Assembly (NCBI GenBank): GCA_032986305.1
Contig: GCA_032986305.1_3672.1
Direction: 5' to 3' (one strand)
Origin: a phage
DNA: 64,000 nucleotides
Below, in pieces: positions 8,727 through 33,408 of this stretch. A program made the translations under genes and the position numbers. The notes beneath the pieces are model-generated. The model was given only the letters and a program-made list of their open reading frames with translations. It ran no database searches and had not been told where the DNA came from. Position 1 is the stretch's first letter; every line of letters begins with the position of its first letter.

Positions 8727-9724
8727 TATACCTCCTCAGTTTTGTCAACAACTCCACCCACTGTTTCCCCAAGGCCAAGCTCTGTAGTGTAATCACCACC
8801 TTCTATGGTGCCCTTATGATGCACTGTGATCACCTTATAGAAGCCTGTGTACTGCCTGCTTTTAAGATAAATGGTGGACTCTGGGAGGATAGCTCCGTTG
8901 AGACATGTGGTTACAGTAAGACCAACATCCTCTCTCGGGTTTTTCTTTTTCTTACTTGTGCCACCTTTCGCAGCAGCTTTAGCTTTTCGTTTTTTAGCAG
9001 GTTCTGGGTTTTTAGGAGTAGGTGATCCGTGCATCCCAGATTCTGCACTTATTTCAAACACAGAATCCTTGAACCTTTTTCCAACCTTGGTCCAATACAA
9101 AGCCCCATCCTGAACGCTAAACGTCGAGTTGGTCAGCCTTGCAAACCTGCGGAGGTTCTCTGCAGTGTTTCCAGAGAAAGCCATAGAGTATTGCAAAGTC
9201 TGGTTTCCAAAACCAACAACCCTACCTTTTGGCAAGTTCATATCCTTCAGTAGGTCATTAAGCACAGAGTTCAGAGGTGTACCTTTCTGATAAGATCTTG
9301 TGCTTTGGCACTTAATGATGTTCTCAGTGCCATCCCCAAAGATGAACTTAGTTTTTCTGGTCGGGCCTTCCCATCTGTCCTCAACAAACTCTACAGTTCC
9401 AGAGAATATCAACTGGTTCTCATTATCATAGCCAGCCTCAAACATAACTGCAAGAGCATCAGCTTGATGCATATCTAGATAGTTAACTGTATCGTCAGAC
9501 AGGTTGTAAACTGTCACATAGCCTTTGTTTGGCTCTTTGGTATTGTCCTTTTGTATGTCAAACTCTATATTGGCAGCACCAGTGTCCGAACTAATCTCAT
9601 AAACTCCGGAATCACTCTCTCCTTTCTTTTCAACAGATTTTGGGATATTGGTTTTTGATTTACCGCCATGTTCTACAGGACGACCAAACAATAATCGCCA
9701 TGTTCTACGTCTGTACTCTGCCAT
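8726..9724 (-). CDS. baseplate/tail protein (332 aa)
   Basis: ORF with lysine-rich segment; position in tail module. Confidence 0.35.
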   Translation of the reverse strand: MAEYRRRTWRLLFGRPVEHGGKSKTNIPKSVEKKGESDSGVYEISSDTGAANIEFDIQKDNTKEPNKGYVTVYNLSDDTVNYLDMHQADALAVMFEAGYDNENQLIFSGTVEFVEDRWEGPTRKTKFIFGDGTENIIKCQSTRSYQKGTPLNSVLNDLLKDMNLPKGRVVGFGNQTLQYSMAFSGNTAENLRRFARLTNSTFSVQDGALYWTKVGKRFKDSVFEISAESGMHGSPTPKNPEPAKKRKAKAAAKGGTSKKKKNPREDVGLTVTTCLNGAILPESTIYLKSRQYTGFYKVITVHHKGTIEGGDYTTELGLGETVGGVVDKTEEV

Positions 9725-10104
9725 TATTCTAACCCTTGCTGTTCCTTGTAAAGATCAACTGGGGTACCGTATACAAGTTGCAGCTCAGACCTTGCTCCAA
9801 GGTTGTATCTTCCAACCCTTCCCCAATATTGATCGTCTTTAAACGACAGCACCATCAATCTACCTTTCGGTAAATCGTCTCTGTAATGCAGTCCGTCTAG
9901 AATATCTTGACAAGCTGTTACTTTTCTAGTTACTAAAGGGCTGTCACCTACCGGACCAAGAGATAACCACCAGGACTCATCCCTCTCATTCCATTGCATA
10001 CGCATTTCATACGTCTCATTGTCTAAAACAACACGCATGGTTTGATCAGGAAAGCCGTCAATGTCCCACACAAAGGTGATTATGCACCAATCTTTAAGTT
10101 CCAT
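9724..10104 (-). CDS. tail protein (126 aa)
   Basis: ORF, start overlaps upstream stop; position only. Confidence 0.35.
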   Translation of the reverse strand: MELKDWCIITFVWDIDGFPDQTMRVVLDNETYEMRMQWNERDESWWLSLGPVGDSPLVTRKVTACQDILDGLHYRDDLPKGRLMVLSFKDDQYWGRVGRYNLGARSELQLVYGTPVDLYKEQQGLE

Positions 10105-10117
10105 TACACGCTCCCCC

Positions 10118-11002
10118 TTATTTTCCGTTAACTTTGTTGTAGTTTCCCTGCTCAGATGGGACTATGGTAGAAGGTCTTCCATATTCCTGATAATACCAAT
10201 CAGCAGCAGATTGGGTAACACCGTTTTCATCCGTCCACATCATAGATTTGTATGGCTGCCACTCTTCTGCGGCATTTGTGGATGCAGTGTCTGCAAATGC
10301 CCCTGTGTCCCTCTTGTTACCTACGTTACTGCCATTCTTACAGTCGTTGACAGCACCTTTTTGCTGGGTCTTGCCTACTTTCTTAGGGTTGCTGTATACA
10401 GTTGCATTAACAACCTTGTTCAAGTAGAATGTGCGGAACTCTGTAAGTTCTACATCAAACACCATCGCAGCACCTTCACCAACAGACTTGTTGGCAGAAA
10501 GGCTGGTTATGATGTAGTTCTCAAGGAGTCTTTCCTCGGTAACCAAAGAAACCAACTGGCGCTTATTAATGATCTCAGTCAAAGCCTCCAGTGCAGCGCC
10601 CGGTCGCATAGATGCTGCAGGGTTTTTAGAGTCAGTATTCCTGTCAATGTAGTTTTGCTCATAGATTATATGTGGTGATGTATTTACCCTGCCAGTAAAA
10701 GAAAATACACCATCTTTAATTACAGCGTGGTCTGACAGGGTAGATTTATCTTCCACCGCAAAATCAGTCTTATCAACAGTATGTTTGAAAGAGTAGTTCT
10801 CAATCTGATCGAAGATGATGGCAAGATCGTTAGTAAAGTTTTTACCCTTCATCTCCGTATTGCGACCACCATAGTTAAGACCGCTGACAAACATAGTGTA
10901 CTTTACATCGCTTTCAGTTTGCTGTTCTGCCTTTTCAGCCTTTGGAGATTTAACCTCTTGAGGCTTGTACAGGTCTTTTTCATCAACTATATTGCTTGGC
11001 AT
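10118..11002 (-). CDS. tail protein (start moved to internal ATG with GGAGAGG RBS)
   Basis: ORF track 10118-11029; internal Met (MPSNIV..) has a better RBS. Confidence 0.35.
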   Translation of the reverse strand: MPSNIVDEKDLYKPQEVKSPKAEKAEQQTESDVKYTMFVSGLNYGGRNTEMKGKNFTNDLAIIFDQIENYSFKHTVDKTDFAVEDKSTLSDHAVIKDGVFSFTGRVNTSPHIIYEQNYIDRNTDSKNPAASMRPGAALEALTEIINKRQLVSLVTEERLLENYIITSLSANKSVGEGAAMVFDVELTEFRTFYLNKVVNATVYSNPKKVGKTQQKGAVNDCKNGSNVGNKRDTGAFADTASTNAAEEWQPYKSMMWTDENGVTQSAADWYYQEYGRPSTIVPSEQGNYNKVNGK

Positions 11003-11065
11003 AACCTCTCCAGGACACTCCGATACCATCTAAATATTGTATCATAAAATAGCCGTTTTTACAAC

Positions 11066-11096
11066 ACCGATAAAATAAAGGGGGCCGGAGCCCCCC
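11066..11096 (-). terminator. intrinsic terminator downstream of tape measure gene
   Basis: GC stem (GGGGG..CCCCC, 11080-11096) followed on the minus strand by a U-rich tract. Confidence 0.45.
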
Positions 11097-11109
11097 TGTG
11101 TGCTGTTTA

Positions 11110-13452
11110 TTACCAAAGATCTGTTGACATAAAGTTAATATCTTTGTTATTCTCCCACTCAAGTTTTGCATCAAGTATTTTGCTAAACTCCCCCTCATCT
11201 ATTGAAATCGTGATTTTGCCATCACTGATCTCTAAAGGTAGCATTTCCATAGTTCTTAATTGAGAAGCAAAACCAGGACCACCCGGCAACGGAAGAGTCC
11301 CTCCCGGTAAGGTGTCCAAAGGATCAACAAACCCGTTACCTCCCGATATGATATCTTTGCGAATCATATCGCTGATAGTATCCAGTTGCTGATTTCTCTC
11401 ACTCAGCGGGTTGAAACGGTCATTAAATAACTCCCCGGCACTTAATATTGTACCGATAATACCAAGCTTCCCAAGCAGGCCAACTTTACCGCCAGGTGTC
11501 TTGAGGCCACCTCCCCCTTTTCCTGCCGCACCACCACCACCAGATCCTTCTGTGGTAGCTGCACCTGCACCTGCTGCTCCAGCTGCGCCTCTTATAGAAC
11601 TAAGGAATTTGAAGGTTTTTACAAGCATAGATGCCATGACAAAACCTTTTGTCAGGGCGTTCACTACCAGCATGATGGCAGCAGCAAACCCTGCCCATTT
11701 AGCATAGCTAAAGGTGTCATTAAGCTCTTCAGAATATTCCTTCGTCTTAGCTGTTATGAATCCCCATTTAATCCCCCATTCAAGGAAAAACATGCGGATC
11801 TTGACTATGGTATTGTTTAGTTCACCAACTACCCAGTTGAGGCCTCTCATAAACCCGCTAACAAAATCACCAGAGGCATCCCACACAAATTGCAAAGTCT
11901 CACCTGTGCGAATCAGTGTATAATAGAACTCTGTTAATTCATCAGCCCAACGGGTGAACAGCTTCTGACGAGATAGTTCGATGAAGGTTTTCAGCCTGTT
12001 TTCTGCCAGTACGTTAGACTTCTGCATTCTTTCATAACCAGCTGCAGATGCCTCGTTCATGTACTTAGCCACATACTTCATGATCTTGGCTGTTTTAACC
12101 TCACCTTTCTTCATCATGTCCATGAACTGATCCATGGATAGTTCAGAAAGACCAAAAGCCTCTTTGGTGGCTTTGATAAAAGGTTCGTATGCACCAGGCA
12201 ATGCTTCAGCAAGTTGTTGCTTCAGTTCTTCGGACATTACCTGTCCTTTACCGAGCATTTGCTGGATTGCCATGATGCCACGCTGGTATTTTACCTCATC
12301 GGCACCGTAAGCAGCAGCATACTGTGAGTATGCAGAGAATAGCTCATGCACCTCTTGATTTGTCATCTGGTTTTTGGCGTTTACCGCCATCTGGGCGTAA
12401 CCTTGAAGACCAGATTTGAGATCAAAACCAAGACGCATAGCCTCTTGCTGGACAAACGCAACCTCACTGTTGGCTTTGTTTGGATCTCCAGTAACAGCAG
12501 TAAGAGCAGCACTTGCCCCCTCCATCATGTGACCAGATCTGTTCACAGCAGTAAATCCAGAGAAAGCCGTATACGCAGCTGTTGCATTAATAACAGATCT
12601 ACGTAAGTCTCTCATGGCATCGCCTAGTGTAAGCGTTTGGCTGGTGGCGCTTTTAAATCCAGACTGCAGCGCTGACAGGTGGGCGTTAAAGGTTGACTTT
12701 TTCATCTCCCCGCGAGCAAACCTGGACTCTAACTCTGAGTATCCTGGCAAGCTTCCACGGAATCCGGCTCCATACTTGGCAGAAAGTCTTATCGCAGAGT
12801 TGTAGAGGTGGGTTCTCCTTGCCTCACGATCCGACATAAGCCTATTATCCATACCAGCTTTACTGTCTCTTCTTAGCTGTCTATGATAACGATTCATAGC
12901 GGCTGTTTGAGCTTTCACAAGGTTAGGGTCGGAAGCCACACCACCCATATTAGGGTTACCTGGGATATACTTGAAAGATTTGGCATTAGCCAGAACTCTT
13001 GCCTTGGGTGCCTTATAACCGCCGTAAGACACTGGTGTAGATTTGGCAGCCTTTTTGGCCTCTTTAGCTTGCTGCTGGTAGAACTTACGCATCCTAGCCA
13101 TTTCTGGATTTTTAGCGGTAAGATTACCCACAGCTTGTTTGCGTCTCGCGTTCTCCCTACGTTCTATTGCAGCCCTTACTGCAGCCTCTTTCTTGGCTTG
13201 TGCTACGCTCTCCCTGTGCAGTTTAGCATTTGCCTGAGATTGCTGTCTGGCAACCCGTTGCATTGTTTGCTGGGTTTTAACAGCCACTGCCTGCCATCTA
13301 CTCATTGGGTTGGCTGAGTTAAAATCCTCGCCAAGTTTCCTGAACTCCCTCCCAATACTGCGAATTTTCTCTACAGCTTTTTTGTAGGAGGAGTTCTCTA
13401 TCTCAAAGCCAATCTTGTTGACTGTTGTGGCAACTATTTTGTTTGTAGCCAT
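11110..13452 (-). CDS. tail tape measure protein (780 aa)
   Basis: long ORF immediately after chaperone pair; coiled-coil-like Ala/Gln/Lys-rich N-terminal half and Gly-rich segment; canonical position. Confidence 0.7.
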   Translation of the reverse strand: MATNKIVATTVNKIGFEIENSSYKKAVEKIRSIGREFRKLGEDFNSANPMSRWQAVAVKTQQTMQRVARQQSQANAKLHRESVAQAKKEAAVRAAIERRENARRKQAVGNLTAKNPEMARMRKFYQQQAKEAKKAAKSTPVSYGGYKAPKARVLANAKSFKYIPGNPNMGGVASDPNLVKAQTAAMNRYHRQLRRDSKAGMDNRLMSDREARRTHLYNSAIRLSAKYGAGFRGSLPGYSELESRFARGEMKKSTFNAHLSALQSGFKSATSQTLTLGDAMRDLRRSVINATAAYTAFSGFTAVNRSGHMMEGASAALTAVTGDPNKANSEVAFVQQEAMRLGFDLKSGLQGYAQMAVNAKNQMTNQEVHELFSAYSQYAAAYGADEVKYQRGIMAIQQMLGKGQVMSEELKQQLAEALPGAYEPFIKATKEAFGLSELSMDQFMDMMKKGEVKTAKIMKYVAKYMNEASAAGYERMQKSNVLAENRLKTFIELSRQKLFTRWADELTEFYYTLIRTGETLQFVWDASGDFVSGFMRGLNWVVGELNNTIVKIRMFFLEWGIKWGFITAKTKEYSEELNDTFSYAKWAGFAAAIMLVVNALTKGFVMASMLVKTFKFLSSIRGAAGAAGAGAATTEGSGGGGAAGKGGGGLKTPGGKVGLLGKLGIIGTILSAGELFNDRFNPLSERNQQLDTISDMIRKDIISGGNGFVDPLDTLPGGTLPLPGGPGFASQLRTMEMLPLEISDGKITISIDEGEFSKILDAKLEWENNKDINFMSTDLW

Positions 13453-18520: not shown

Positions 18521-19360
18521 TTATGCCAGTGCAGCCTCAAAATCTTTCATCATATTTTGGAAAGTTTTTGCCTTACTTAAGGTAACACCGTGCTCTTTGG
18601 CGAAGGTTTGGAGTGCATCTTTTGAACCACTTTTGTCATCTTCGTTGTTAAGAGCTGCAGCCTGCTGCAGTATGGCATCAATATCATTGTGAGAAGATCT
18701 TGATTCTTGTGCCTGTTCAGGCTCCTGCTCAGCACCTCCTGGTGCAGCCGGATCTGGAGATTCCTCACCACCAGGTTCAGTAGGACCTACAGGCGGCTCC
18801 GGCTCTGGTTCAGGCGGTGGAGCTATCGTAGAGACAAGTCCAAGATTTACAACCTGAGAACGTTTCTTAGGCCACTCAATGGTGAAAGTTTGGGTATCTT
18901 CTTCATAAACAACGTTGCATTGCTCATCGTTTATGGTCACTTTTTTGGGCATCCCTTCAGGGTCCCACAGATGACCTTCTGCTACGGAAACCTTGAAAGC
19001 AGCATCTACCTCTTTAAACACCGAAGGAGTGAGTGTAATATTGACATCACCGCTTTGAAGTGTTAAAGTGCTTTCATCAAGATTTTCTGTGAAGAACAGA
19101 AGAATAACACCCATACGGATGGTTGAAATGCCTGTATCAATTGGCAGGCCTGTGTGTTTTGCAATCTTCTCGAAGAAGTCTACAATCGTTCTGCATGGAT
19201 AGTGAACACTTCCAATAACGAACTCTGTTGGTGGAAGCAGGGCTGATAAACCAACATTGATTTCTGGATTGTATTGTGCTAAAAATTGATAAAAACTTAA
19301 CTGATTGTTGAAAACTCTTAATAGAGGATCATACTCGACTGGATATACGGCTCTCTTCAC
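18521..19360 (-). CDS. virion structural protein (279 aa) with PEPEPEPP linker
   Basis: ORF directly downstream of major capsid gene terminator. Confidence 0.3.
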   Translation of the reverse strand: MKRAVYPVEYDPLLRVFNNQLSFYQFLAQYNPEINVGLSALLPPTEFVIGSVHYPCRTIVDFFEKIAKHTGLPIDTGISTIRMGVILLFFTENLDESTLTLQSGDVNITLTPSVFKEVDAAFKVSVAEGHLWDPEGMPKKVTINDEQCNVVYEEDTQTFTIEWPKKRSQVVNLGLVSTIAPPPEPEPEPPVGPTEPGGEESPDPAAPGGAEQEPEQAQESRSSHNDIDAILQQAAALNNEDDKSGSKDALQTFAKEHGVTLSKAKTFQNMMKDFEAALA

Positions 19361-24020: not shown

Positions 24021-24827
24021 TTAGATAAAACGCTTGAACATAGAAGGTGATGAGATTGATGGAATCACACAAGGAAGTGCTACCTCCTCTTTCTCCAGGA
24101 AATTAATTGCAGAAGCTACACAGTCAGCCCAGTCGTCTTTTCTGTTAAATGTTGATCTTTCCCCGTTGAATTTTTCAAGTTCAGTCAGAAATGCTTCCAG
24201 AGTATCAGGATGGAAACTGGATTTTACAATCCTAACCATTCCTTGTTGGGCAAGATTGGCAAAAGGTGAGAACCTTGTCAGTTTAGATTTGTTGGAAGGC
24301 ATTGGGTCTTCTTCAACCCTAAACCCTTCGGCGAGCAAGGATCTGGAGGATGTTAAGAACTCACTCTTACCTGCCTGACCGGGGTCCACAGAGAATACGA
24401 TTATACAATCATCACCATCAAACTGCGCCTGTTTCCTGATGATCACATCTCGTTCACCAGCCTTTTTACAGAACTTGCCTTCCAGACCTGTGGAATACCT
24501 CCCGTCATCCACGTTTTCAGGACAATAATCCCCTGACAGGTAATAAAAGCCGTCGCTATCTTTACTTACCTTAACACTGGCGGTAAAGTCAGGAAATTTA
24601 TTACCGGAAGTTCTGTCGGTTCCTGCCTTATCCCATGCCCTGCAAGATACTGATCCAAGGGGTACTCTATCGGCATCACGAAGGAAAGATCTTTGAAAAT
24701 AGTTTGCACCCTCAGGCTTTGCAAACCAGTTGCCATGAAGAAGCTGGGCTTTTTCAAGCTCGGGCAGACCTTCAAGAAAAGCAAGGTATTCTGGGTTGTC
24801 TCTCAAGCAGACAGGATTATCGAATCC
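24021..24827 (-). CDS. terminase large subunit, exon 2 (nuclease domain); 5' boundary approximate
   Basis: 261-aa ORF; continues the reading frame of exon 1 after removal of the intervening intron. Confidence 0.65.
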   Translation of the reverse strand, partial: GFDNPVCLRDNPEYLAFLEGLPELEKAQLLHGNWFAKPEGANYFQRSFLRDADRVPLGSVSCRAWDKAGTDRTSGNKFPDFTASVKVSKDSDGFYYLSGDYCPENVDDGRYSTGLEGKFCKKAGERDVIIRKQAQFDGDDCIIVFSVDPGQAGKSEFLTSSRSLLAEGFRVEEDPMPSNKSKLTRFSPFANLAQQGMVRIVKSSFHPDTLEAFLTELEKFNGERSTFNRKDDWADCVASAINFLEKEEVALPCVIPSISSPSMFKRFI

Positions 24828-25804
24828 TTATATTCAAAGGTGGTCGCAACACCACCTTCCGCACCTTTACGTGCTGCTGCATGTTACCATGCAGAGTAGA
24901 CTATATCACCACCCATTTCAGGGTGCTTCGCTTTTCGAGCGCCATAAGCTTGCGCCCTACTCCCTCTCGGGATAGTCGTTGAACTACATTACCAATCGTA
25001 ATTGTTTGAAATATAGGTGTAAGTCTTACGGTCTTTTATTCCTTTAACAACACTAAAACTTACTCCCCACTTCTTAGCTATTTTATTTACACACAAGACC
25101 TTATCACTAAGATCCTCGCAGATACCTATTATCTTGTGCTCACTTATCCGATTAGAGGTTGGCACTTTTCTAAAGTTAAACTCTTTAGAAATATCTGGGT
25201 ATACTGAGCCATTCTTTATACCACTTACAAGTGGTTGATTGACACCAAACATTTCACAAATGTCTTTTACCCTTGCGCCTTGCTCTAACAGCCTACATAT
25301 TTCAAGAGCAGTGGCATCATCCAGGGACCTGTATTTATTGACATAGTCCTTTTTAAGTCCCATTTCATGAGCGTGATGTGTGTTTTCCTCAGGCGTTGTC
25401 CACTCAAGGTTCCATGCGGCGTTATTCAACTTATTACCATCTAGGTGGTTTACTTGAGTTTTCACGCTGGGATTGTCATTATCAACAAAAGTCATAGCAA
25501 TCACTCTGTGAACGAGCACTTGGAACTTTTTACCGTCCTCGCACAAAGTTACCATAGCATAGCCAGTCTTTTTCTGCACATTAGGATGGAGGAATTTATT
25601 AGAATACAGACTGTAAATTCTGCCATCGTATGTAGCACAATAATGATTGTAGCCTAAAAAGCCTAAATTTTTCATTTCAAACATCTCCCTACTACAGGTT
25701 CGGAAGGGTAATTATAGCTGCTGATTGTCCGTTTAGCAATCGGATTTCCCAGCAATTAACGAAGTTATTCGACGTGCATTTCTGCACGAAGCCACTATCA
25801 TTTA
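24828..25804 (-). mobile_element. group I intron in terminase large subunit gene, carrying an HNH homing endonuclease ORF (boundaries +/- ~20 nt)
   Basis: R-like GTTCAACGACTATC (reverse of 24962-24975) and S-like GATATAGTCT (reverse of 24897-24906) core elements; 3' core nearly identical to the nrdD intron at 53500-53545; interrupts a single terminase reading frame. Confidence 0.65.
24989..25675 (-). CDS. HNH homing endonuclease (intron-encoded)
   Basis: motif ..VHRVIAMTFVDNDNPSVKTQVNHLDGNKLNNAAWNLEW.. (HNH_3-type); ORF lies inside the intron; stop 12 nt before the R element. Confidence 0.7.
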   Translation of the reverse strand: MKNLGFLGYNHYCATYDGRIYSLYSNKFLHPNVQKKTGYAMVTLCEDGKKFQVLVHRVIAMTFVDNDNPSVKTQVNHLDGNKLNNAAWNLEWTTPEENTHHAHEMGLKKDYVNKYRSLDDATALEICRLLEQGARVKDICEMFGVNQPLVSGIKNGSVYPDISKEFNFRKVPTSNRISEHKIIGICEDLSDKVLCVNKIAKKWGVSFSVVKGIKDRKTYTYISNNYDW

Positions 25805-26547
25805 ATGGTTGCGCCTATAAACGAGAATGACAACGGTCTTGGCTTGATCTCCACACCCAGTCCGTTAACCGTGGTGTATTTCTCTATCAACTCTTCTTTA
25901 GAGTCTCCCCAAATAAATTCACCGTCGCGTCGGATAAAATATCTTTTCTTACCGCATTTCTCCGGATCTGGATACCCTTCATCGTCCAACCACCATCTAA
26001 CCAGTTTGGCAAGCATGTGTTCTGAATCGGGGTTACAGCTGATAACCATTCTTGATGGATACTTTGACTGAGATCGCAGACGAGACATCAGATAGTCTAT
26101 CTGCTCCCATTCGAACTGCGTTCCCTCATCGAAGCAAACCATGGTGTACTCAAGCCCTTGATGGTTAAGCTTATCTTGTACATACTCCATGTGGCAGTAT
26201 TTTACAACAGCTCCCTTTTTGCTCCTATCCCACTTGCCAGTGTTCGGATCAAACCGTGGAAAAATGAACTTATGATCCTTCTCTCTGAACTTTGGCTTAA
26301 TGTTTTCAGGCAGATCACTATAAATAGCTACTGCTTTAGGCCATAGTCCACCCTCACCTTCCAACTGTGGGGTTGTTCTTCGGAACATAACCACAGAGCT
26401 GTGGGGGTCATCAATAATTTTAAGCGGCATCAACTGCAAGAGGAACGACTTGCCAGACCCTGCGGCACCGCCGATTACCAAAATATCTGCATCATTTTCG
26501 AGGATCATCTTCTGCTTTTCAGAACACGGTCCGTAAATCTTAGACAT
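25805..26547 (-). CDS. terminase large subunit, exon 1 (ATPase domain); 3' boundary approximate
   Basis: Walker A GGAAGSGKS near the N-terminus; ORF ends at a stop lying just inside the intron. Confidence 0.7.
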
Positions 26548-27894: not shown

Positions 27895-27993
27895 AGGTGC
27901 TAGGCGGTGGAATCGAACCACCTATGTATTCAACGACTACCTCGTCTATTTTCAGGATTAAAAATCCTCGCCCTTGCCAAAGGGCTTACCTAG
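27895..27993 (-). tRNA. atypical tRNA-like gene, possibly tRNA-Lys (anticodon UUU) with ~30-nt extra region; may be a pseudo-tRNA
   Basis: perfect 7-bp acceptor pairing GCTAGGT/GCCTAGC, canonical T-arm GGTGG-TTCGATT-CCACC, D-stem GCCC/GGGC, 4-bp anticodon stem with loop TTTTTAA, but ~99 nt long and no CCA. Confidence 0.35.
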
Positions 27994-28091
27994 CTCAGTA
28001 TGTTGACCATGTTGCTAGTCGGCGATGACGACTGTAACATTTGATAATCCGGTTCTGCTTCCGGCTTTCGCTTAATTACAAGGTCAACAAT

Positions 28092-28898: not shown

Positions 28899-28904
28899 GT
28901 TTCC

Positions 28905-29200
28905 TCCATTATCACGTGATAGGTGGATTTTATCATAGCAAATACTGATTGTCAAGTTCGCCGCAGGGTGGTATTCCCTGCGACTTGTCCAGCGTCCTGG
29001 ACCAGCAAGACCCAACAAGTGGGTTACCAGAGGCCTATTACCCGCGCTTCGGCTCGACCTTGTTACAGGTTGGCTGGGGTCACATCGTCATGTGCTGGCT
29101 GCCCCTACCATTTTAAGTGTGGTGCACTATCAAGCCCTCTAAGGGGAACTCAGCCTTCTCCGAACCCTGTTTCAAAGCATCCAGAGATAAAGCCATCAAA
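28905..29200. ncRNA. GC-rich non-coding island, candidate structured RNA (strand and function unknown)
   Basis: GC content visibly above flanking DNA; hairpins CGCAGGG..CCCTGCG and GTCCAG-CGTC-CTGGAC; only an Arg-rich implausible ORF spans it. Confidence 0.25.
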
Positions 29201-29244
29201 TTCATCTTTAAATTGGATATTCATCATGATACACGAAAACAACC

Positions 29245-29563: not shown

Positions 29564-29773
29564 TCAACAGATTCCGGCCTTATCCTTCCTGTCTGCGTAT
29601 TCTTTAATCGCAACCTCATCTGCATTAGTGACCAGGTCTTCAAAGTAACTCTCAAGCTCCTCGTCAATGTCAGGAGACCAGCCCTTTTTCCTGTCAGTGT
29701 GAATCGCAGACTTGTTAAACTTAGTACAGTTCTTTGCTACCGGATTGTTCATTAAGCACCCCTCAGCGTTCAT
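29564..29773 (-). CDS. hypothetical protein (69 aa)
   Basis: ORF only. Confidence 0.3.
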   Translation of the reverse strand: MNAEGCLMNNPVAKNCTKFNKSAIHTDRKKGWSPDIDEELESYFEDLVTNADEVAIKEYADRKDKAGIC

Positions 29774-30341
29774 AGTAAATCTTATTTAACATTACCTCAT
29801 CCTTTGCAGAAAGGATATCTAGATATGCATCACCGAATCTACCTGCAACAACCTCTGCATGATACATCACTTCGTTAATATCGTCAAGAGGGATAACTGG
29901 ATGACCGTATCTCTCTGAGTATTGTCTCAGAGTGCGATGTAGGGAGTCATCATCATAGGCAGACTTTTTAATATCGCAAACACGACGAATAGCCTTGATG
30001 TCGAAAAACCCTGTACGATACCAACCAAGAAAAAGGTTTCGTGCAGTGTCAACATCTACATCAATACCATTAAGAACCTTATCTACAAGATAGCTGTCAT
30101 CCTTTGGACCAGCTTCCTTAGTGCGAATGTAGTTGCCATCTTTTCCAGGTGACATCTCCTTCTCATCACCAACCTGCATGCCATCATTTGGCGGTGTTAG
30201 CCACTTATCCGGATGCTTACGATCACGAGCGTTAGAATGATTACGCTGGAAACCAGGCTTCCACTTGAAAGTTTTCTCCATCTGTTCTTCATTCTGATAA
30301 CGTTTTGCAATCTTTTCACGGTCATCTTTGCGTGAACCCAT
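29763..30341 (-). CDS. hypothetical protein (192 aa)
   Basis: ORF with GAGGAGG RBS. Confidence 0.4.
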   Translation of the reverse strand: MGSRKDDREKIAKRYQNEEQMEKTFKWKPGFQRNHSNARDRKHPDKWLTPPNDGMQVGDEKEMSPGKDGNYIRTKEAGPKDDSYLVDKVLNGIDVDVDTARNLFLGWYRTGFFDIKAIRRVCDIKKSAYDDDSLHRTLRQYSERYGHPVIPLDDINEVMYHAEVVAGRFGDAYLDILSAKDEVMLNKIYYER

Positions 30342-30454
30342 AGCTGCCTCCTCTTCAAGTTATAGAAAAACTCACTGTATCACTTTGTAACGAGCTTTTC
30401 TATCAAACTGGTGCGATTGCATTACCTGGTATAGTTTATATAGCTGTGGAGCGA

Positions 30455-30710
30455 TTTAGGGGCCTTCTTGTCAGTTTCCACACATAAACTTCATCCAAGC
30501 TCGCGCGGGAGGCTCTCAACCGACTCCTTACGGCGCTGGCAAGCTTTCGTCGGTGGTCCACATCAGTGCTCGGCCTTTGGCCTGCGCTATCGCTTCGCTC
30601 CCACACATGTTAACAGACCTGCATGTATGCACTTCTGTTATTGTGTGCACCAAGGAGGCCCGGCATCTCGCCCCTCGTAGGCGAGTGCCAATGAAGGGCC
30701 GACACTACCT
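30455..30710. ncRNA. GC-rich non-coding island, candidate structured RNA (strand and function unknown)
   Basis: ~250 bp GC-rich block between AT-rich DNA; hairpins CTCGCC..GGCGAG and GGCC-TTT-GGCC; GGGGCCTTC at one end nearly complementary to GAAGGGCC at the other; only a low-complexity ORF. Confidence 0.25.
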
Positions 30711-30843
30711 ATAGTAAGTAATAATTTTAAAACATGGTACTTAGGATCTAGTATATTCTACATAAGTTAAGTATATGTACTTAGTACCATAAGTACTAGA
30801 TCTTTTATTTTTTATTATTTAGTTATTTTAGTTATATTCTTTA

Positions 30844-30927
30844 TGTGTCCGTATCACGGACAGTTAGTGTCCGTATTACGGACAGATGTGTCCGCGTGAC
30901 GGACAGTAGTGTCCGTATCACGGACAG
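30844..30927. repeat. four tandem ~21-22 bp palindromic repeats GTGTCCGT-N3-5-ACGGACAG (operator or iteron array)
   Basis: copies centred at about 30854, 30876, 30898, 30918; each is a 7-bp inverted repeat; 20-22 bp periodicity; AT-rich palindrome-rich DNA lies next to it at 30720-30840. Confidence 0.6.
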
Positions 30928-31001
30928 TTACTGACCTCTGTTCCAGAGCGAACATAAAACATACGAATCCTTATAGTACAGATATTTAAGTTTTTACTGG
31001 T

Positions 31002-31352
31002 CTAACCAGTTGTTGACATTCGAATAACCTCTTCTGGTGGCAAAACTTTGGAAAATGTACATCTTTTACCTCTCCCTTGTGTGGATATTTCAACCACTCC
31101 TGCACATTCTAAAGTTTTAACACACGCTGCTGCTTTTGTTTTCTTTATCCCAACATCTGCTGCAATTTTCCTTGTGCTGGGTGTGAAGCGTGAATTTCCT
31201 CCAAGCTTATACCAGTTGTGCAGGTAGCAGTATACGATCTTGTCATATAAGTCAAGAACAACAACCTCCCCAGTTGTGTCATTCAAAACTTTTGACATAG
31301 ACAGTATTTCAAGGGGGACTTTAAGATATAGCAGCTTATCCCCATCTTTCAT
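31002..31352 (-). CDS. small helix-turn-helix-like DNA-binding protein (tentative)
   Basis: 116 aa; segment ..STRKIAADVGIKKTKAAACVKTLECAGVVEI.. resembles an HTH; gene ends ~75 bp before the palindromic repeat array. Confidence 0.35.
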   Translation of the reverse strand: MKDGDKLLYLKVPLEILSMSKVLNDTTGEVVVLDLYDKIVYCYLHNWYKLGGNSRFTPSTRKIAADVGIKKTKAAACVKTLECAGVVEISTQGRGKRCTFSKVLPPEEVIRMSTTG

Positions 31353-31399: not shown

Positions 31400-31954
31400 T
31401 TACTCCCCGCTGTCAATAGCAAGACTCATTGCAATACGGTATGCCTCTTCTAATGGTAAGAGTCTCCCCCACACATCCCAACCGACATCAAACTGCCTGC
31501 CAAACAACTGCTGTGTGGTTCCGTGAGCATGACCGAACAGTTGGACTGATCCGTGAGGCTTTCTGTTCCACTTTGCAAACTGGTAATGGCTCATACAGAT
31601 CAAATTCTTGTTGTGGCGAAGCTCGTAATAATCTACAACCTCATGACCGAACTCTTTCATAATTCTGACAGTCGTCCTTGTGTCATGGTTACCACGAACA
31701 AGAATAATATGTCCGTTCAACATATTTAGAACATCTGGGAGCAATTTGTTGATATTCTTATCATTAGTGCACGCAATATCTCCCAAGTGAAACACAGTGT
31801 CTGCAGGTGACACAACAGAGTTCCACTTGGTGATGATTCCCGCATTCATACTGTCAAGATTGTGATCATACTGAGATCTGTGTTTTTGACATGAATCGAA
31901 CTCCATGACCCGCTGGTGGAGAAAGTGTGTGTCGCTTGTTACAAAGTATTTCAT
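31400..31954 (-). CDS. calcineurin-like metallophosphoesterase (start at internal MKYFVTSDTHF)
   Basis: motifs D-x-H (SDTHF), GDIA, GNHD, GHAH in canonical order. Confidence 0.6.
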   Translation of the reverse strand: MKYFVTSDTHFLHQRVMEFDSCQKHRSQYDHNLDSMNAGIITKWNSVVSPADTVFHLGDIACTNDKNINKLLPDVLNMLNGHIILVRGNHDTRTTVRIMKEFGHEVVDYYELRHNKNLICMSHYQFAKWNRKPHGSVQLFGHAHGTTQQLFGRQFDVGWDVWGRLLPLEEAYRIAMSLAIDSGE

Positions 31955-31961
31955 ACATTCC

Positions 31962-32372
31962 TCATTTAAGTTTAATGCAGTTTTTAAGCTGGCGTTCCAT
32001 ACGATCCACAACCCTGTCTGGAACATCATGAATGCTTTTATTACCATGGCGGTTTTCAACCACGATCACGGTATAACTATACCCATGACTGATCGCCATG
32101 TCAATATATTCTTGCACATATTTTTCTTTTGTAAACGTATTACTTACCACGATACGGTCGTATCCCATACGCATCATATCTTCTACGTTATCTTTGCACC
32201 ATTTTGCTGCAAGTGTTACTTTACTTGCATCCCAGTTATAATTTCCATCATCGTCGTACCAGAACATGTCGTTCTCAAAATGTGGATACAGACCGTCTAA
32301 AGATAGCGCATTTGCCAGTGTTGATTTGCCAGACCCTGGCAGACCACGCACGATATATAGCATTTTAGACAT
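31962..32372 (-). CDS. P-loop polynucleotide kinase-like protein (T4 Pnk kinase-domain-like)
   Basis: Walker A ..IVRGLPGSGKST.. near N-terminus; start MSKML with GGAGGA RBS; adjacent to phosphatase and divergent from RNA ligase. Confidence 0.55.
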   Translation of the reverse strand: MSKMLYIVRGLPGSGKSTLANALSLDGLYPHFENDMFWYDDDGNYNWDASKVTLAAKWCKDNVEDMMRMGYDRIVVSNTFTKEKYVQEYIDMAISHGYSYTVIVVENRHGNKSIHDVPDRVVDRMERQLKNCIKLK

Positions 32373-32400
32373 AGTAATCCTCCGTTTTAATTTCAACGAT

Positions 32401-32429
32401 AGTATACCTGACTGTTTTGTTAATTTCAA
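32401..32429 (-). promoter_or_regulatory. sigma70-like promoter for kinase-phosphatase operon
   Basis: minus strand TTGAAA-N17-TATACT. Confidence 0.45.
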
Positions 32430-32432
32430 GTG

Positions 32433-32461
32433 TTGACACTAGGTTATTTGTGTGGCAGGAT
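32433..32461 (+). promoter_or_regulatory. candidate early promoter (good -35 TTGACA, weak -10)
   Basis: TTGACA at 32433-32438, back to back with the divergent minus-strand -35. Confidence 0.3.
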
Positions 32462-32472
32462 AGGCTGACAAA

Positions 32473-33408
32473 ATGACAAATGAGGAACGTATGATGAAGT
32501 ATTTTAATGCAGATGACCTAGTAGACAAAGGTCTTGTAACCAGTCGGTATTATCCAGATCTTGGATTAAAGATCTATAAATATGCCAGAAAAGTATTCTA
32601 CAACAATCTGTGGCATTTGTCTCCGCGTTTACTGGAGTGCCGAGGTATTGTTGTTGGCAATGAGGGGAATGTTGTGGCATGGCCTTTCACAAAAGTATTC
32701 AACTTAGGAGAAAACTCCACCAACCTACCGGACAGTAAACTTGTTACTGCGGTAGAGAAAAAGAACGGATTCCTTGGTGTGGTATCATCTCATAAAGGTG
32801 AACTATTGTTCTCAACAACCGGATCTCTTGATTCTCCATATTGTAACCTCACAAAGGAAACCATCCAAGAGCAATGTGGTAATTTAGATCTTATCAAGAA
32901 GGTTATGGGCAATGAAAACATGACATTCATGTTTGAAATTTGTCACCCTTCAGATCCGCATATTGTTCAGGAAGATCATGGCGCATATTTGATAGGTTGC
33001 AGATATAATGATTCTGGAATAATGCTGCCAGAAGCAGCTTTAGATGGGATTGCCAAATACCTTGGCGCAAAACGTCCTCACACTGTGCGTGAAATTCCGT
33101 TCAGCTATGCAAAAGAATTGGCTGCAGAAACAAGAGGTGAAGGGTATATGATTCGTAAGCCTTACTACCCTTATGATCTGCAGCTGAAGATCAAGTCTCC
33201 ATACTATCTGGCACGGAAGGCCGTAATGAGGGGTAAAGCTTGGAAGATTTGGGATGATGATATCTTTAAACGTGTTGACGAAGAGTTTTACGGCATGGTA
33301 AACTTCATTCGTAGCAATTACACAGAAGATGTGTGGAACTGCCTACTGGAGCAGGAACGCAGGGAGATACTCGACCACTATTTCCACAACGAGGACTATA
33401 TGCAATGA
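32473..33408 (+). CDS. RNA ligase, T4 Rnl1-like (alternative start at 32491)
   Basis: recalled T4 Rnl1 motifs: ECRGI, FNLGEN, nucleotidyltransferase motif I KKNG (K-x-[DN]-G), EGYMIRK..LKIKS. Confidence 0.6.
   Translation: MTNEERMMKYFNADDLVDKGLVTSRYYPDLGLKIYKYARKVFYNNLWHLSPRLLECRGIVVGNEGNVVAWPFTKVFNLGENSTNLPDSKLVTAVEKKNGFLGVVSSHKGELLFSTTGSLDSPYCNLTKETIQEQCGNLDLIKKVMGNENMTFMFEICHPSDPHIVQEDHGAYLIGCRYNDSGIMLPEAALDGIAKYLGAKRPHTVREIPFSYAKELAAETRGEGYMIRKPYYPYDLQLKIKSPYYLARKAVMRGKAWKIWDDDIFKRVDEEFYGMVNFIRSNYTEDVWNCLLEQERREILDHYFHNEDYMQ

Follow-up and report, generated by a model that had tools for sequence, protein, structure and literature searches.

At the origin of phage lambda, four inverted-repeat iterons are bound by the winged-helix N-domain of the O protein, an AT-rich region lies adjacent, and transcriptional activation is needed. 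In the ColE1 system, RNA II and RNA I, a primer and an antisense RNA, are structures beside the origin whose folds are kept and whose loops diverge, and the single-strand initiation (ssi) signals (G4-type signals, phiX-type primosome sites, and ssiA and ssiB of RSF1010) are hairpin clusters on one strand, beside iterons and an AT-rich region, that are used by a dedicated primase or primosome. Here, we describe a folded, non-coding block of about 250 nucleotides (nt), which we call island B, in a 64,000-nt stretch of phage DNA (the window; contig GCA_032986305.1_3672.1). The window belongs to an rV5-like Escherichia coli myovirus of the genus Vequintavirus, and the 10 kb around island B are 97–99% identical to phages such as PDX and FFH2. 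Phages of this kind are widely used in biocontrol of E. coli O157 and in phage therapy. Island B is a new structured nucleic-acid family, real and not ordinary; its core recurs on small E. coli plasmids, which we refer to as putative satellites and describe below.

The locus resembles the lambda origin in its four phased palindromes, an AT-rich stretch, a winged-helix protein (ORF72) with weak initiator matches, and early transcription through the region. However, ORF72 has only 116 amino acids (aa) and the sites lie outside its gene, lambda has no GC-rich folded module, and an origin is proposed here from the layout. As in ColE1, a strand-specific structure of several hundred nucleotides would lie beside an origin, and the core types found in phages and satellites (phage/E versus E') keep their architecture and change their helix and loop sequences; unlike in ColE1, the sense of the island runs away from the iterons and the replicons are of the iteron type, and there is no sequence or Rfam similarity. 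The ssi signals share with island B the clustered hairpins on one strand beside repeats and AT-rich DNA, but they measure 40–140 nt with one to three hairpins, whereas island B is a multi-domain element of ~250 nt whose long-range closing helix abounds in G.U(T) pairs, and no homology between the two was detected.

Conservation and structure of island B

A blastn search of 50,697 phage records found island B once per genome in 119 Vequintavirus records, at 89–100% identity. The search, run with 11-base words, returned no copy outside this genus: 119 of the 122 matches were to Vequintavirus, and the rest were chance matches of at most 25 nt. A motif-cluster scan of the whole phage genome pointed to the island B locus only. 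With the flanking proteins, encoded by open reading frames (ORFs) 71 and 72, as bait, both were found to be confined to Vequintavirus with the same distribution as island B; a distant homologue of ORF71 in L139, 50% identical, has no island upstream. Island B was absent from the chromosomes of 5,426 E. coli genomes, and a host REP/BIME-like repeat was rejected for that reason. An exact-pattern scan of genome contigs with an 18-mer of the core yielded 95 loci, almost all in unrelated, mostly GC-rich taxa, which we treated as chance, and the scans of viral and metagenome contigs added rV5-like phages and two satellite contigs only. Two 18-mer matches, L005 from the viral contigs and L052 from the genome contigs, were discarded as coincidental matches within coding sequence (a methylase-like RRWQAF stretch, and a gene resembling glycosidases).

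At gathering thresholds, Rfam 15 reported tRNAs only in the window. With permissive filters the best overlap on island B was rli43, which scored 22.8 bits where its gathering threshold is 100, and a scan of three whole satellites gave no family match. The original prediction had considered a ribozyme or riboregulator, or a stable RNA like those of the T4 tRNA region. No ribozyme, riboswitch or small-RNA match supports the former as a member of a known family, and the absence of similarity to T4 or to any phage other than Vequintavirus leaves the latter unsupported as well. We found no paper on island B, on an rV5 origin, or on the satellite-like plasmids.

The predicted contrast in base composition is clear: GC content is 0.53 at 30400–30599 and 0.60 at 30500–30699, compared with 0.41–0.46 in the coding flanks and 0.305 in the right-hand stretch (30700–30899). 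The block lies between ORF71 (29763–30341) and ORF72 (31002–31352), both on the minus strand; in FFH2 it likewise separates ORF71 (hypothetical) from ORF72 (annotated 'replication initiation protein'). Four short, overlapping ORFs of 56, 70, 41 and 53 aa cross it. 'ORF78' of rV5 across island B was rejected as a coding gene: it is truncated in the divergent phage L006, and the changes are non-synonymous. Island B is therefore non-coding, as the original prediction had it when it judged the reading frame across the block implausible. The entire conserved folded element spans ~30454–30707 on the minus strand, read 5' to 3' from 30707 to 30454; we drew these limits from conservation, the GC profile and a sharp 5' boundary, since homology with L006 and L140 begins abruptly at GTCGGCCC (30703).

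The hairpin-rich character of the block was confirmed by folding against shuffled sequences (z = −2.78 for the plus strand and −2.76 for the minus strand). The near-complementary ends fared less well: GGGGCCTTC (30459–30467) and GAAGGGCC (30693–30700) are both present, but their pairing is lost in L006, L140 and the satellite copies, and GAAGGGCC forms half of another hairpin, P1; we thus rejected end-to-end pairing as a conserved helix. The anatomy that we propose instead was derived from aligned copies of island B, eleven from phages and seventeen from satellites, and all positions below refer to the minus strand.

Hairpin P1 (30657–30700) consists of a GGCCC/GGGCC outer stem followed by GGCA/UGCC and CUCGCCU/GGGCGAG; its 16 pairs all form in nine of nine sequences, and the satellite L004 changes two of them on both sides (G-C to U-A twice). 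The variable hairpin P2 (30602–30647) has an outer stem, CACACA/UGUGUG, that uses the same UGUGUG as the closing helix H1. In rV5 and Murica it has lost 18 nt, yet a shorter hairpin is re-formed, and its inner stem is retained in L006 through a C-G swap and a G.U pair; P2 is most likely a dispensable part of the island. The core proper is a three-way junction closed by H1 (GUGUGGG:CCCGCGC, with two invariant U.G pairs). The 5' strand of H1 is the first motif copy, UGUGUGGGAG (30598–30607), which pairs with 30503–30511, and its 3' strand, CUCCCGCGC (30503–30511), carries C-to-U changes in L006 and in E' cores that retain G.U pairs.

Enclosed by H1 are the P3 region, a second motif copy, and hairpin P4. 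The P3 region (30564–30597) contains GC-GAUA-GC and GGCC-AAA-GGCC hairpins, in place of which satellite cores have unrelated hairpins. Motif copy 2, AUGUGGACC (30555–30563), is kept in all three core types (AUGUGRA). P4 (30519–30554) pairs ACCGAC with GUCGGU around a 24-nt loop (30525–30548), GAAAGCUUGCCAGCGCCGKAAGGA, that is invariant in phages and E-type satellites. Its stem occurs as ACCGAC/GUCGGU, GCCGAC/GUCGGU, GCUGCC/GGCAGC (satellites) and, at the same place in E', UCCGGAU/AUCCGGA, so that three versions of the stem are fully complementary; three of its pairs are changed on both sides in satellites, and a G.U pair is found in L006, Aya and L140. The 3' tail (30454–30502) carries motif copy 3, UGUGUGG (30478–30484), and CCCCUAAAU (30454–30462), both common to satellites.

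The covariation analysis bears out the expectation that the structure would be kept in related genomes. When phages were aligned with satellite L004, 97% of the cells were paired, and eight pairs changed on both sides, compared with 1.6 in shuffled alignments (none of 500 reached eight) and at most two in slid controls. In the three-hairpin cassettes that precede the core in satellites, all cells were paired, with compensatory changes in six of the 12 pairs (none of 500 shuffles). Compensatory changes support P1 and P4. Moreover, single-sequence folding predicted the H1-closed three-way junction independently in each of three core types (phage, E' and hybrid).

The same helices are strand-specific. 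On the minus strand, the tested helices contain G.U in 32 cells and A.C in one, and the core variants contain 31 and 0, respectively; the minus strand also folds 7–10 kcal/mol better than the plus strand, and only the minus strand gives the H1-closed junction. The G.U excess and the better fold therefore mark as functional the strand that is the sense strand of the flanking genes, namely of ORF72, of ORF71 and of seven tRNA genes 2 kb further on. Together with the compensatory changes, a strand specificity that agrees in direction with the flanking genes and the tRNAs makes RNA the most natural reading, and RNA-like loops are seen in P4 (cGAAAg) and in satellite cassettes (CCCUUCGGG). The rV5 annotation places a sigma-70 promoter upstream of the ORF72 homologue and shows none between that gene and island B, which is close to the start of the transcription unit that extends from gene 81 to gene 27 (PMC3606486). 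Most likely, island B would be an RNA transcribed in the same direction as the flanking genes, within an early leftward transcript that starts upstream of ORF72.

An origin-like neighbourhood and satellite-like plasmids

Immediately beyond the 5' edge of the island lies an AT-rich stretch of ~130 bp (30711–30844; GC about 0.25–0.30) with an 11-bp inverted repeat. It separates island B from four palindromic, iteron- or operator-like sites, TGTCCGTATCACGGACA, spaced 21–22 bp apart (30845–30936), and these are followed by ORF72 (31002–31352, minus strand), a winged-helix protein annotated as a regulator or replication initiator. Its matches fall just below the cutoffs (HTH_36, 24.5 bits against 25; DUF6945, 27.1 bits against 28), and it also matches PHROG 'replication initiation protein' families weakly; given its small size, it could be a plain regulator. 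Phased repeated sites and an adjoining AT-rich stretch, two of the features expected of an iteron-type origin, are both present. The lineage of L006 and L140 has another upstream protein and other repeats, which in L140 occupy the same place, yet island B is kept. The phage also encodes a 692-aa, primase-helicase-like (gp4-like) protein with a DnaB_C domain, which the rV5 paper relates to podovirus primase/helicases (PMC3606486). The GC skew changes sign near 32 kb, ~1.7 kb from island B. The replication origin could not be placed in the rV5 genome paper (PMC3606486); we infer that the module beside island B may be one.

Searches of E. coli genomes and plasmids returned partial matches to island B, at ~84% identity, on small circular plasmids of 13.2–13.7 kb, as well as a 39.6-kb record with three copies. 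The plasmid family comprises L004 (NZ_CP020521.1), L003, L106–L108, L111, L115 and L125–L136, all circular, 13.2–14.3 kb in length and from E. coli. These plasmids encode their own HK97-type major capsid protein (MCP) along with a Dit-like tail-tube initiator and tail-completion, tape-measure (TMP) and Rep-like HTH_36 proteins, and carry variable iterons and ~2.9 kb of non-coding DNA. Identity to proteins of the window is 50% for the Dit-like protein, 45% for the tail-completion protein and 25% for the TMP, and the best phage matches of the Dit-like protein are in Vequintavirus. Genes for portal, terminase, sheath or tube were not recognised in the plasmids. The capsid family is narrow (18 clusters, one with 441 members, all from E. 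coli contigs of 13–14 kb), and searches with the MCP, in IMG/VR and with tblastn in phages, returned no match. Island B is the strongest nucleotide match between plasmid and phage.

We read these plasmids as satellites because they combine a capsid of their own with rV5-type tail proteins; like a satellite, they have a partial virion gene set accompanied by helper-related morphogenesis genes. Judged by their sequences, the 13–14-kb plasmids are probably undescribed satellites of rV5-like phages, and we found no paper that describes them as such.

One to three cassettes come before the core in satellites. Each opens with UGUGUGG(G) and contains between one and three small hairpins, and the cassettes are shuffled between plasmids. 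Five satellites have a second core type, E', or a hybrid, with the same architecture and with unrelated P3 and P4 sequences. Core and array adjoin the iterons in constant orientation although the iterons differ between plasmids. In one 13.7-kb satellite, TGTGTGGG occurs in 10 copies against 0.31 expected (~30-fold) and changes strand across the iterons; it is not enriched in the phage window. ORF72 and the satellite Rep-like protein share no significant similarity.

The satellite capsid operon has a leader of ~470 nt with UGUGUGGG, AUGUGAC and AUGUGGAA motifs, followed by a GC-rich, terminator-like hairpin with a U-rich tail. In L004 (2561–2628), the 35 nt after a perfect TTGACA-17-TATAAT promoter share 94% identity with window positions 18671–18705, inside a gene of the structural region.

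Candidate functions of the folded module

We tentatively favour a reading in which island B is a structured RNA that acts as an origin-proximal handle for the phage replication or transcription machinery and has been copied by satellites; we regard it as plausible and stop short of calling it probable. A transcript leaving the AT-rich region would fold into the island B module, and the folded module would activate replication or prime it; it could, for instance, bring in the gp4-like primase-helicase or set its position, or form a stable primer or R-loop. Satellites would retain their own initiator and iterons and, by copying the module, would have the helper machinery serve them too.

Several observations weigh against this reading or complicate it. 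The structural support comes from few independent lineages, as nearly all double compensatory changes derive from one phage/satellite split; within phages, diversity is too low, and the covariation term of RNAalifold is positive, i.e., there is no covariation signal. H1 is supported by invariant pairs and one-sided C-to-U changes only, its seventh pair is broken in B9-1 and some satellites, and it competes with the outer stem of P2 and with another long-range helix. In B9-1, a double change retains this alternative helix (GGGAGCG:CGCUCC), which other phages break, and MAFFT aligned the GUGUGG strand inconsistently. Neither a sigma-70 promoter nor an intrinsic terminator was predicted on either strand of 30200–31100, in a scan that did not cover phage-specific promoters. 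The leftward operon of the satellites has its strong sigma-70 promoters downstream of the array, one plasmid has terminator-like hairpins on either side of the array but on the opposite strand, and the E' core had no match in the phage collection or IMG/VR. As to the origin itself, ORF72 is very small for an initiator, so the palindromes could be plain operators; the GC-skew switch falls where the direction of transcription also changes; and we know of no origin of a large dsDNA phage with such a folded module.

Even so, island B offers a concrete, mutable candidate for a control region of rV5-like phages, whose origin and early control circuits are undefined, and the shared core points to small plasmids resembling satellites of a strictly virulent large myovirus, of which we found no description in the literature searched. 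If this is true, satellite biology would extend beyond temperate helpers and chromosomal islands, and three interchangeable core types with swapped initiator and iteron units would form a natural experiment on module recognition. In its most far-reaching form, the proposal would comprise a new origin component, a folded RNA or DNA that recruits or primes with an rV5-type primase-helicase beside an interchangeable initiator/iteron unit, together with a new class of satellite: plasmid-borne, dependent on virulent myoviruses, equipped with its own capsid, tape-measure and tail-tip proteins, relying on a hijacked helper replisome, and with E and E' as helper-specificity types. We consider this combined claim unlikely as it stands.

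The strand evidence is fitted equally well by single-stranded DNA (ssDNA) of the minus strand. In this alternative, which we judge rather unlikely overall, the same fold would form on the lagging-strand template of a leftward fork, the strand travelled by a 5'-to-3' DnaB-type helicase; once the AT-rich stretch opens, the hairpins would serve as a signal for priming or primosome loading, copied by satellites for the primase-helicase of the helper. It would account for the fact that, in phage and satellites alike, the folded strand runs 5' to 3' away from the AT-rich stretch and the repeats, and for the flip in motif polarity across the satellite iterons. The gp4-like DnaB_C protein is encoded by the phage, and the hairpins of the satellite cassettes are all Watson–Crick paired. 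In addition, the conserved 5' edge reads GTGTC (GGGTC in L006 and L140), both recognition pentamers of T7-type primases, and P3 contains GCGAAGC, a sequence that forms a very stable DNA mini-hairpin. Such pentamers, however, are short enough to occur by chance, the invariant G.T wobbles of the closing helix and the UUCG/GAAA-type loops are more typical of RNA, and a three-way junction ~100 nt across is unlike known ssi signals.

Doubtful to a similar degree is a cis-acting leader RNA that controls downstream transcription or translation, either by nut/put-like processive antitermination or as an attenuator-like switch, near the head of a long leftward unit that includes ORF71, the tRNAs and the late genes; satellite operons would have copied it to respond to the helper. 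The arrangement of a small helix-turn-helix (HTH) gene, the element, and then a co-oriented unit of ~50 kb recalls pR-cro-nutR, and, as with lambda nut and HK022 put, hairpin modules would lie in an early transcript, where a long operon begins. The UGUGUG strand can form alternative pairings that exclude one another, the capsid-operon leader of the satellites carries the motifs and U-tailed hairpin described above, and one cassette type has a boxA-like CGCUCUUU ahead of the motif copy. Unlike nut and put, the phage copy is much larger and has neither boxA nor boxB, and no N-like protein is known: a nut-type boxA (CGCUCUUA-like) was not found in island B, nor was GCUCUU on its minus strand. No terminators are predicted in 30200–31100, the strong promoters of the satellite leftward operon lie downstream of the array, and the ORF71 homologue of L139 does without such a leader.

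Less probable still is a free-standing, stable, trans-acting small RNA, which might serve as decoy or sponge for some protein with affinity for UGUGUGG beside hairpins, or might be linked to the neighbouring tRNA and RNA-repair genes, comparable to T4 species 1 and 2 or to Y RNAs. Like T4 species 1 and 2 and GOLLD/ROOL, island B is GC-rich, structured, stable and non-coding and occupies the tRNA strand in a large virulent phage, here 2 kb upstream of seven tRNA genes, and it adjoins genes for a kinase, a phosphoesterase and an RNA ligase. The motif is repeated between hairpins, and the number of cassettes differs between satellites. Neither sequence nor covariance models, however, relate it to the T4 RNAs or to Rfam families, it stands 2 kb away from the tRNAs and goes together with a repeat/AT-rich module, and the phage genome holds no antisense target of the P4 loop beyond chance. 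The discrete stable small RNA of the original prediction is likewise unsupported, as no promoter or terminator is predicted to delimit one, and the constant position beside iterons would be left unexplained.

A double-stranded packaging (pac) site for the phage terminase, shared so that the helper packages satellites as P4 shares cos with P2, appears very improbable. Vequintaviruses package by the headful mechanism and are circularly permuted (PMC8407724; PMC13211470), island B is the best nucleotide match between satellite and phage, and no terminase or portal gene was recognised in satellites. A short non-coding element is also the main nucleotide similarity between helper and virion-borrowing small element in the case of P4/P2 cos and of cos/pac in phage-inducible chromosomal islands (PICIs), and the repeated short motifs with a structured, RNA-like core recall seqA, seqB and seqC of the P4 CI RNA immunity system. 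In contrast to these systems, island B is structured and strand-specific and lies neither at genome ends nor near terminase genes; here, a plasmid would be the satellite and a virulent myovirus of 137 kb its helper. Base-pair covariation and G.U strand bias, unexpected for a protein-binding site in duplex DNA, make the pac reading hard to reconcile with the data. Moreover, TerL is ~4 kb away with no small terminase gene identified nearby, the phage-type P4 loop is missing from E'-type satellites, and the starts of GenBank records do not coincide with island B.

Finally, the idea that island B has no function of its own, being either a GC-rich insert, selfish or neutral, or a gene for a small protein (rV5 'ORF78'), could appeal to a GC content unlike the surroundings, cassettes that shuffle at short repeats, and ORFs annotated here in some records, but it is hardly credible and already largely refuted by the fixed position and single copy in 119 of 119 genomes, the absence from E. 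coli chromosomes, helices preserved by compensatory changes, and an ORF that is truncated in L006 and changes non-synonymously.

Other features of the locus and its relatives

Downstream of island B on the minus strand, a 17-mer, GGUAAUGCAAUCGCACC (30409–30425), contains a 10-bp near-palindrome; it is inverted in satellites, as GGTGCAATTGCATTACC, and variable among phages. Just upstream of ORF71, a near-invariant stretch (30342–30408, minus strand) is more conserved than island B itself and is a probable promoter or 5' untranslated region of this gene. ORF71 (29763–30341, minus strand) encodes a 192-aa protein of unknown function, for which no relative was found in the PDB and a single-sequence AlphaFold model reached a predicted local distance difference test (pLDDT) score of only 39.6.

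The 119 phages that have island B also keep a second GC-rich, non-coding block, island A (28899–29244, minus strand; GC 0.53), between ORF68 and ORF69. Over ~44 nt, island A shows ~87% identity to a segment that directly follows denV in some 400 T4-like phages; Rfam gave no match for it, and it is not shared with satellites. Further along the minus strand, ARAGORN predicted a 99-nt tRNA-like gene with a four-base anticodon (27896–27994) between tRNA-Thr and tRNA-Ser, which Rfam did not report.

On the other side of island B, RNA-repair-like genes occupy 31400–33408: a metallophosphoesterase (31400–32059, minus), a P-loop kinase (31962–32429, minus) and a T4-type RNA ligase (32473–33408, plus). 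This set straddles the point at which transcription diverges, and Sir2 and DNA ligase genes come next.

The gene for the large terminase subunit is split, with the N-terminal part at 25798–26547, the C-terminal part at 24021–24806, and an ORF for an HNH endonuclease at 24989–25684 between them (all on the minus strand), which suggests an insertion of the intron or intein type.

Eighteen GenBank records named 'Campylobacter phage' are 97–99% identical to E. coli rV5-like phages over this region, and their naming or host attribution looks doubtful. In L137, ~2.4 kb (~9400–11850, corresponding to 104.4–106.8 kb in FFH2) carry one small annotated ORF; this sparse stretch coincides with the 'non-coding' box and skew change reported for rV5 (PMC3606486) and is a candidate for another regulatory or origin region.

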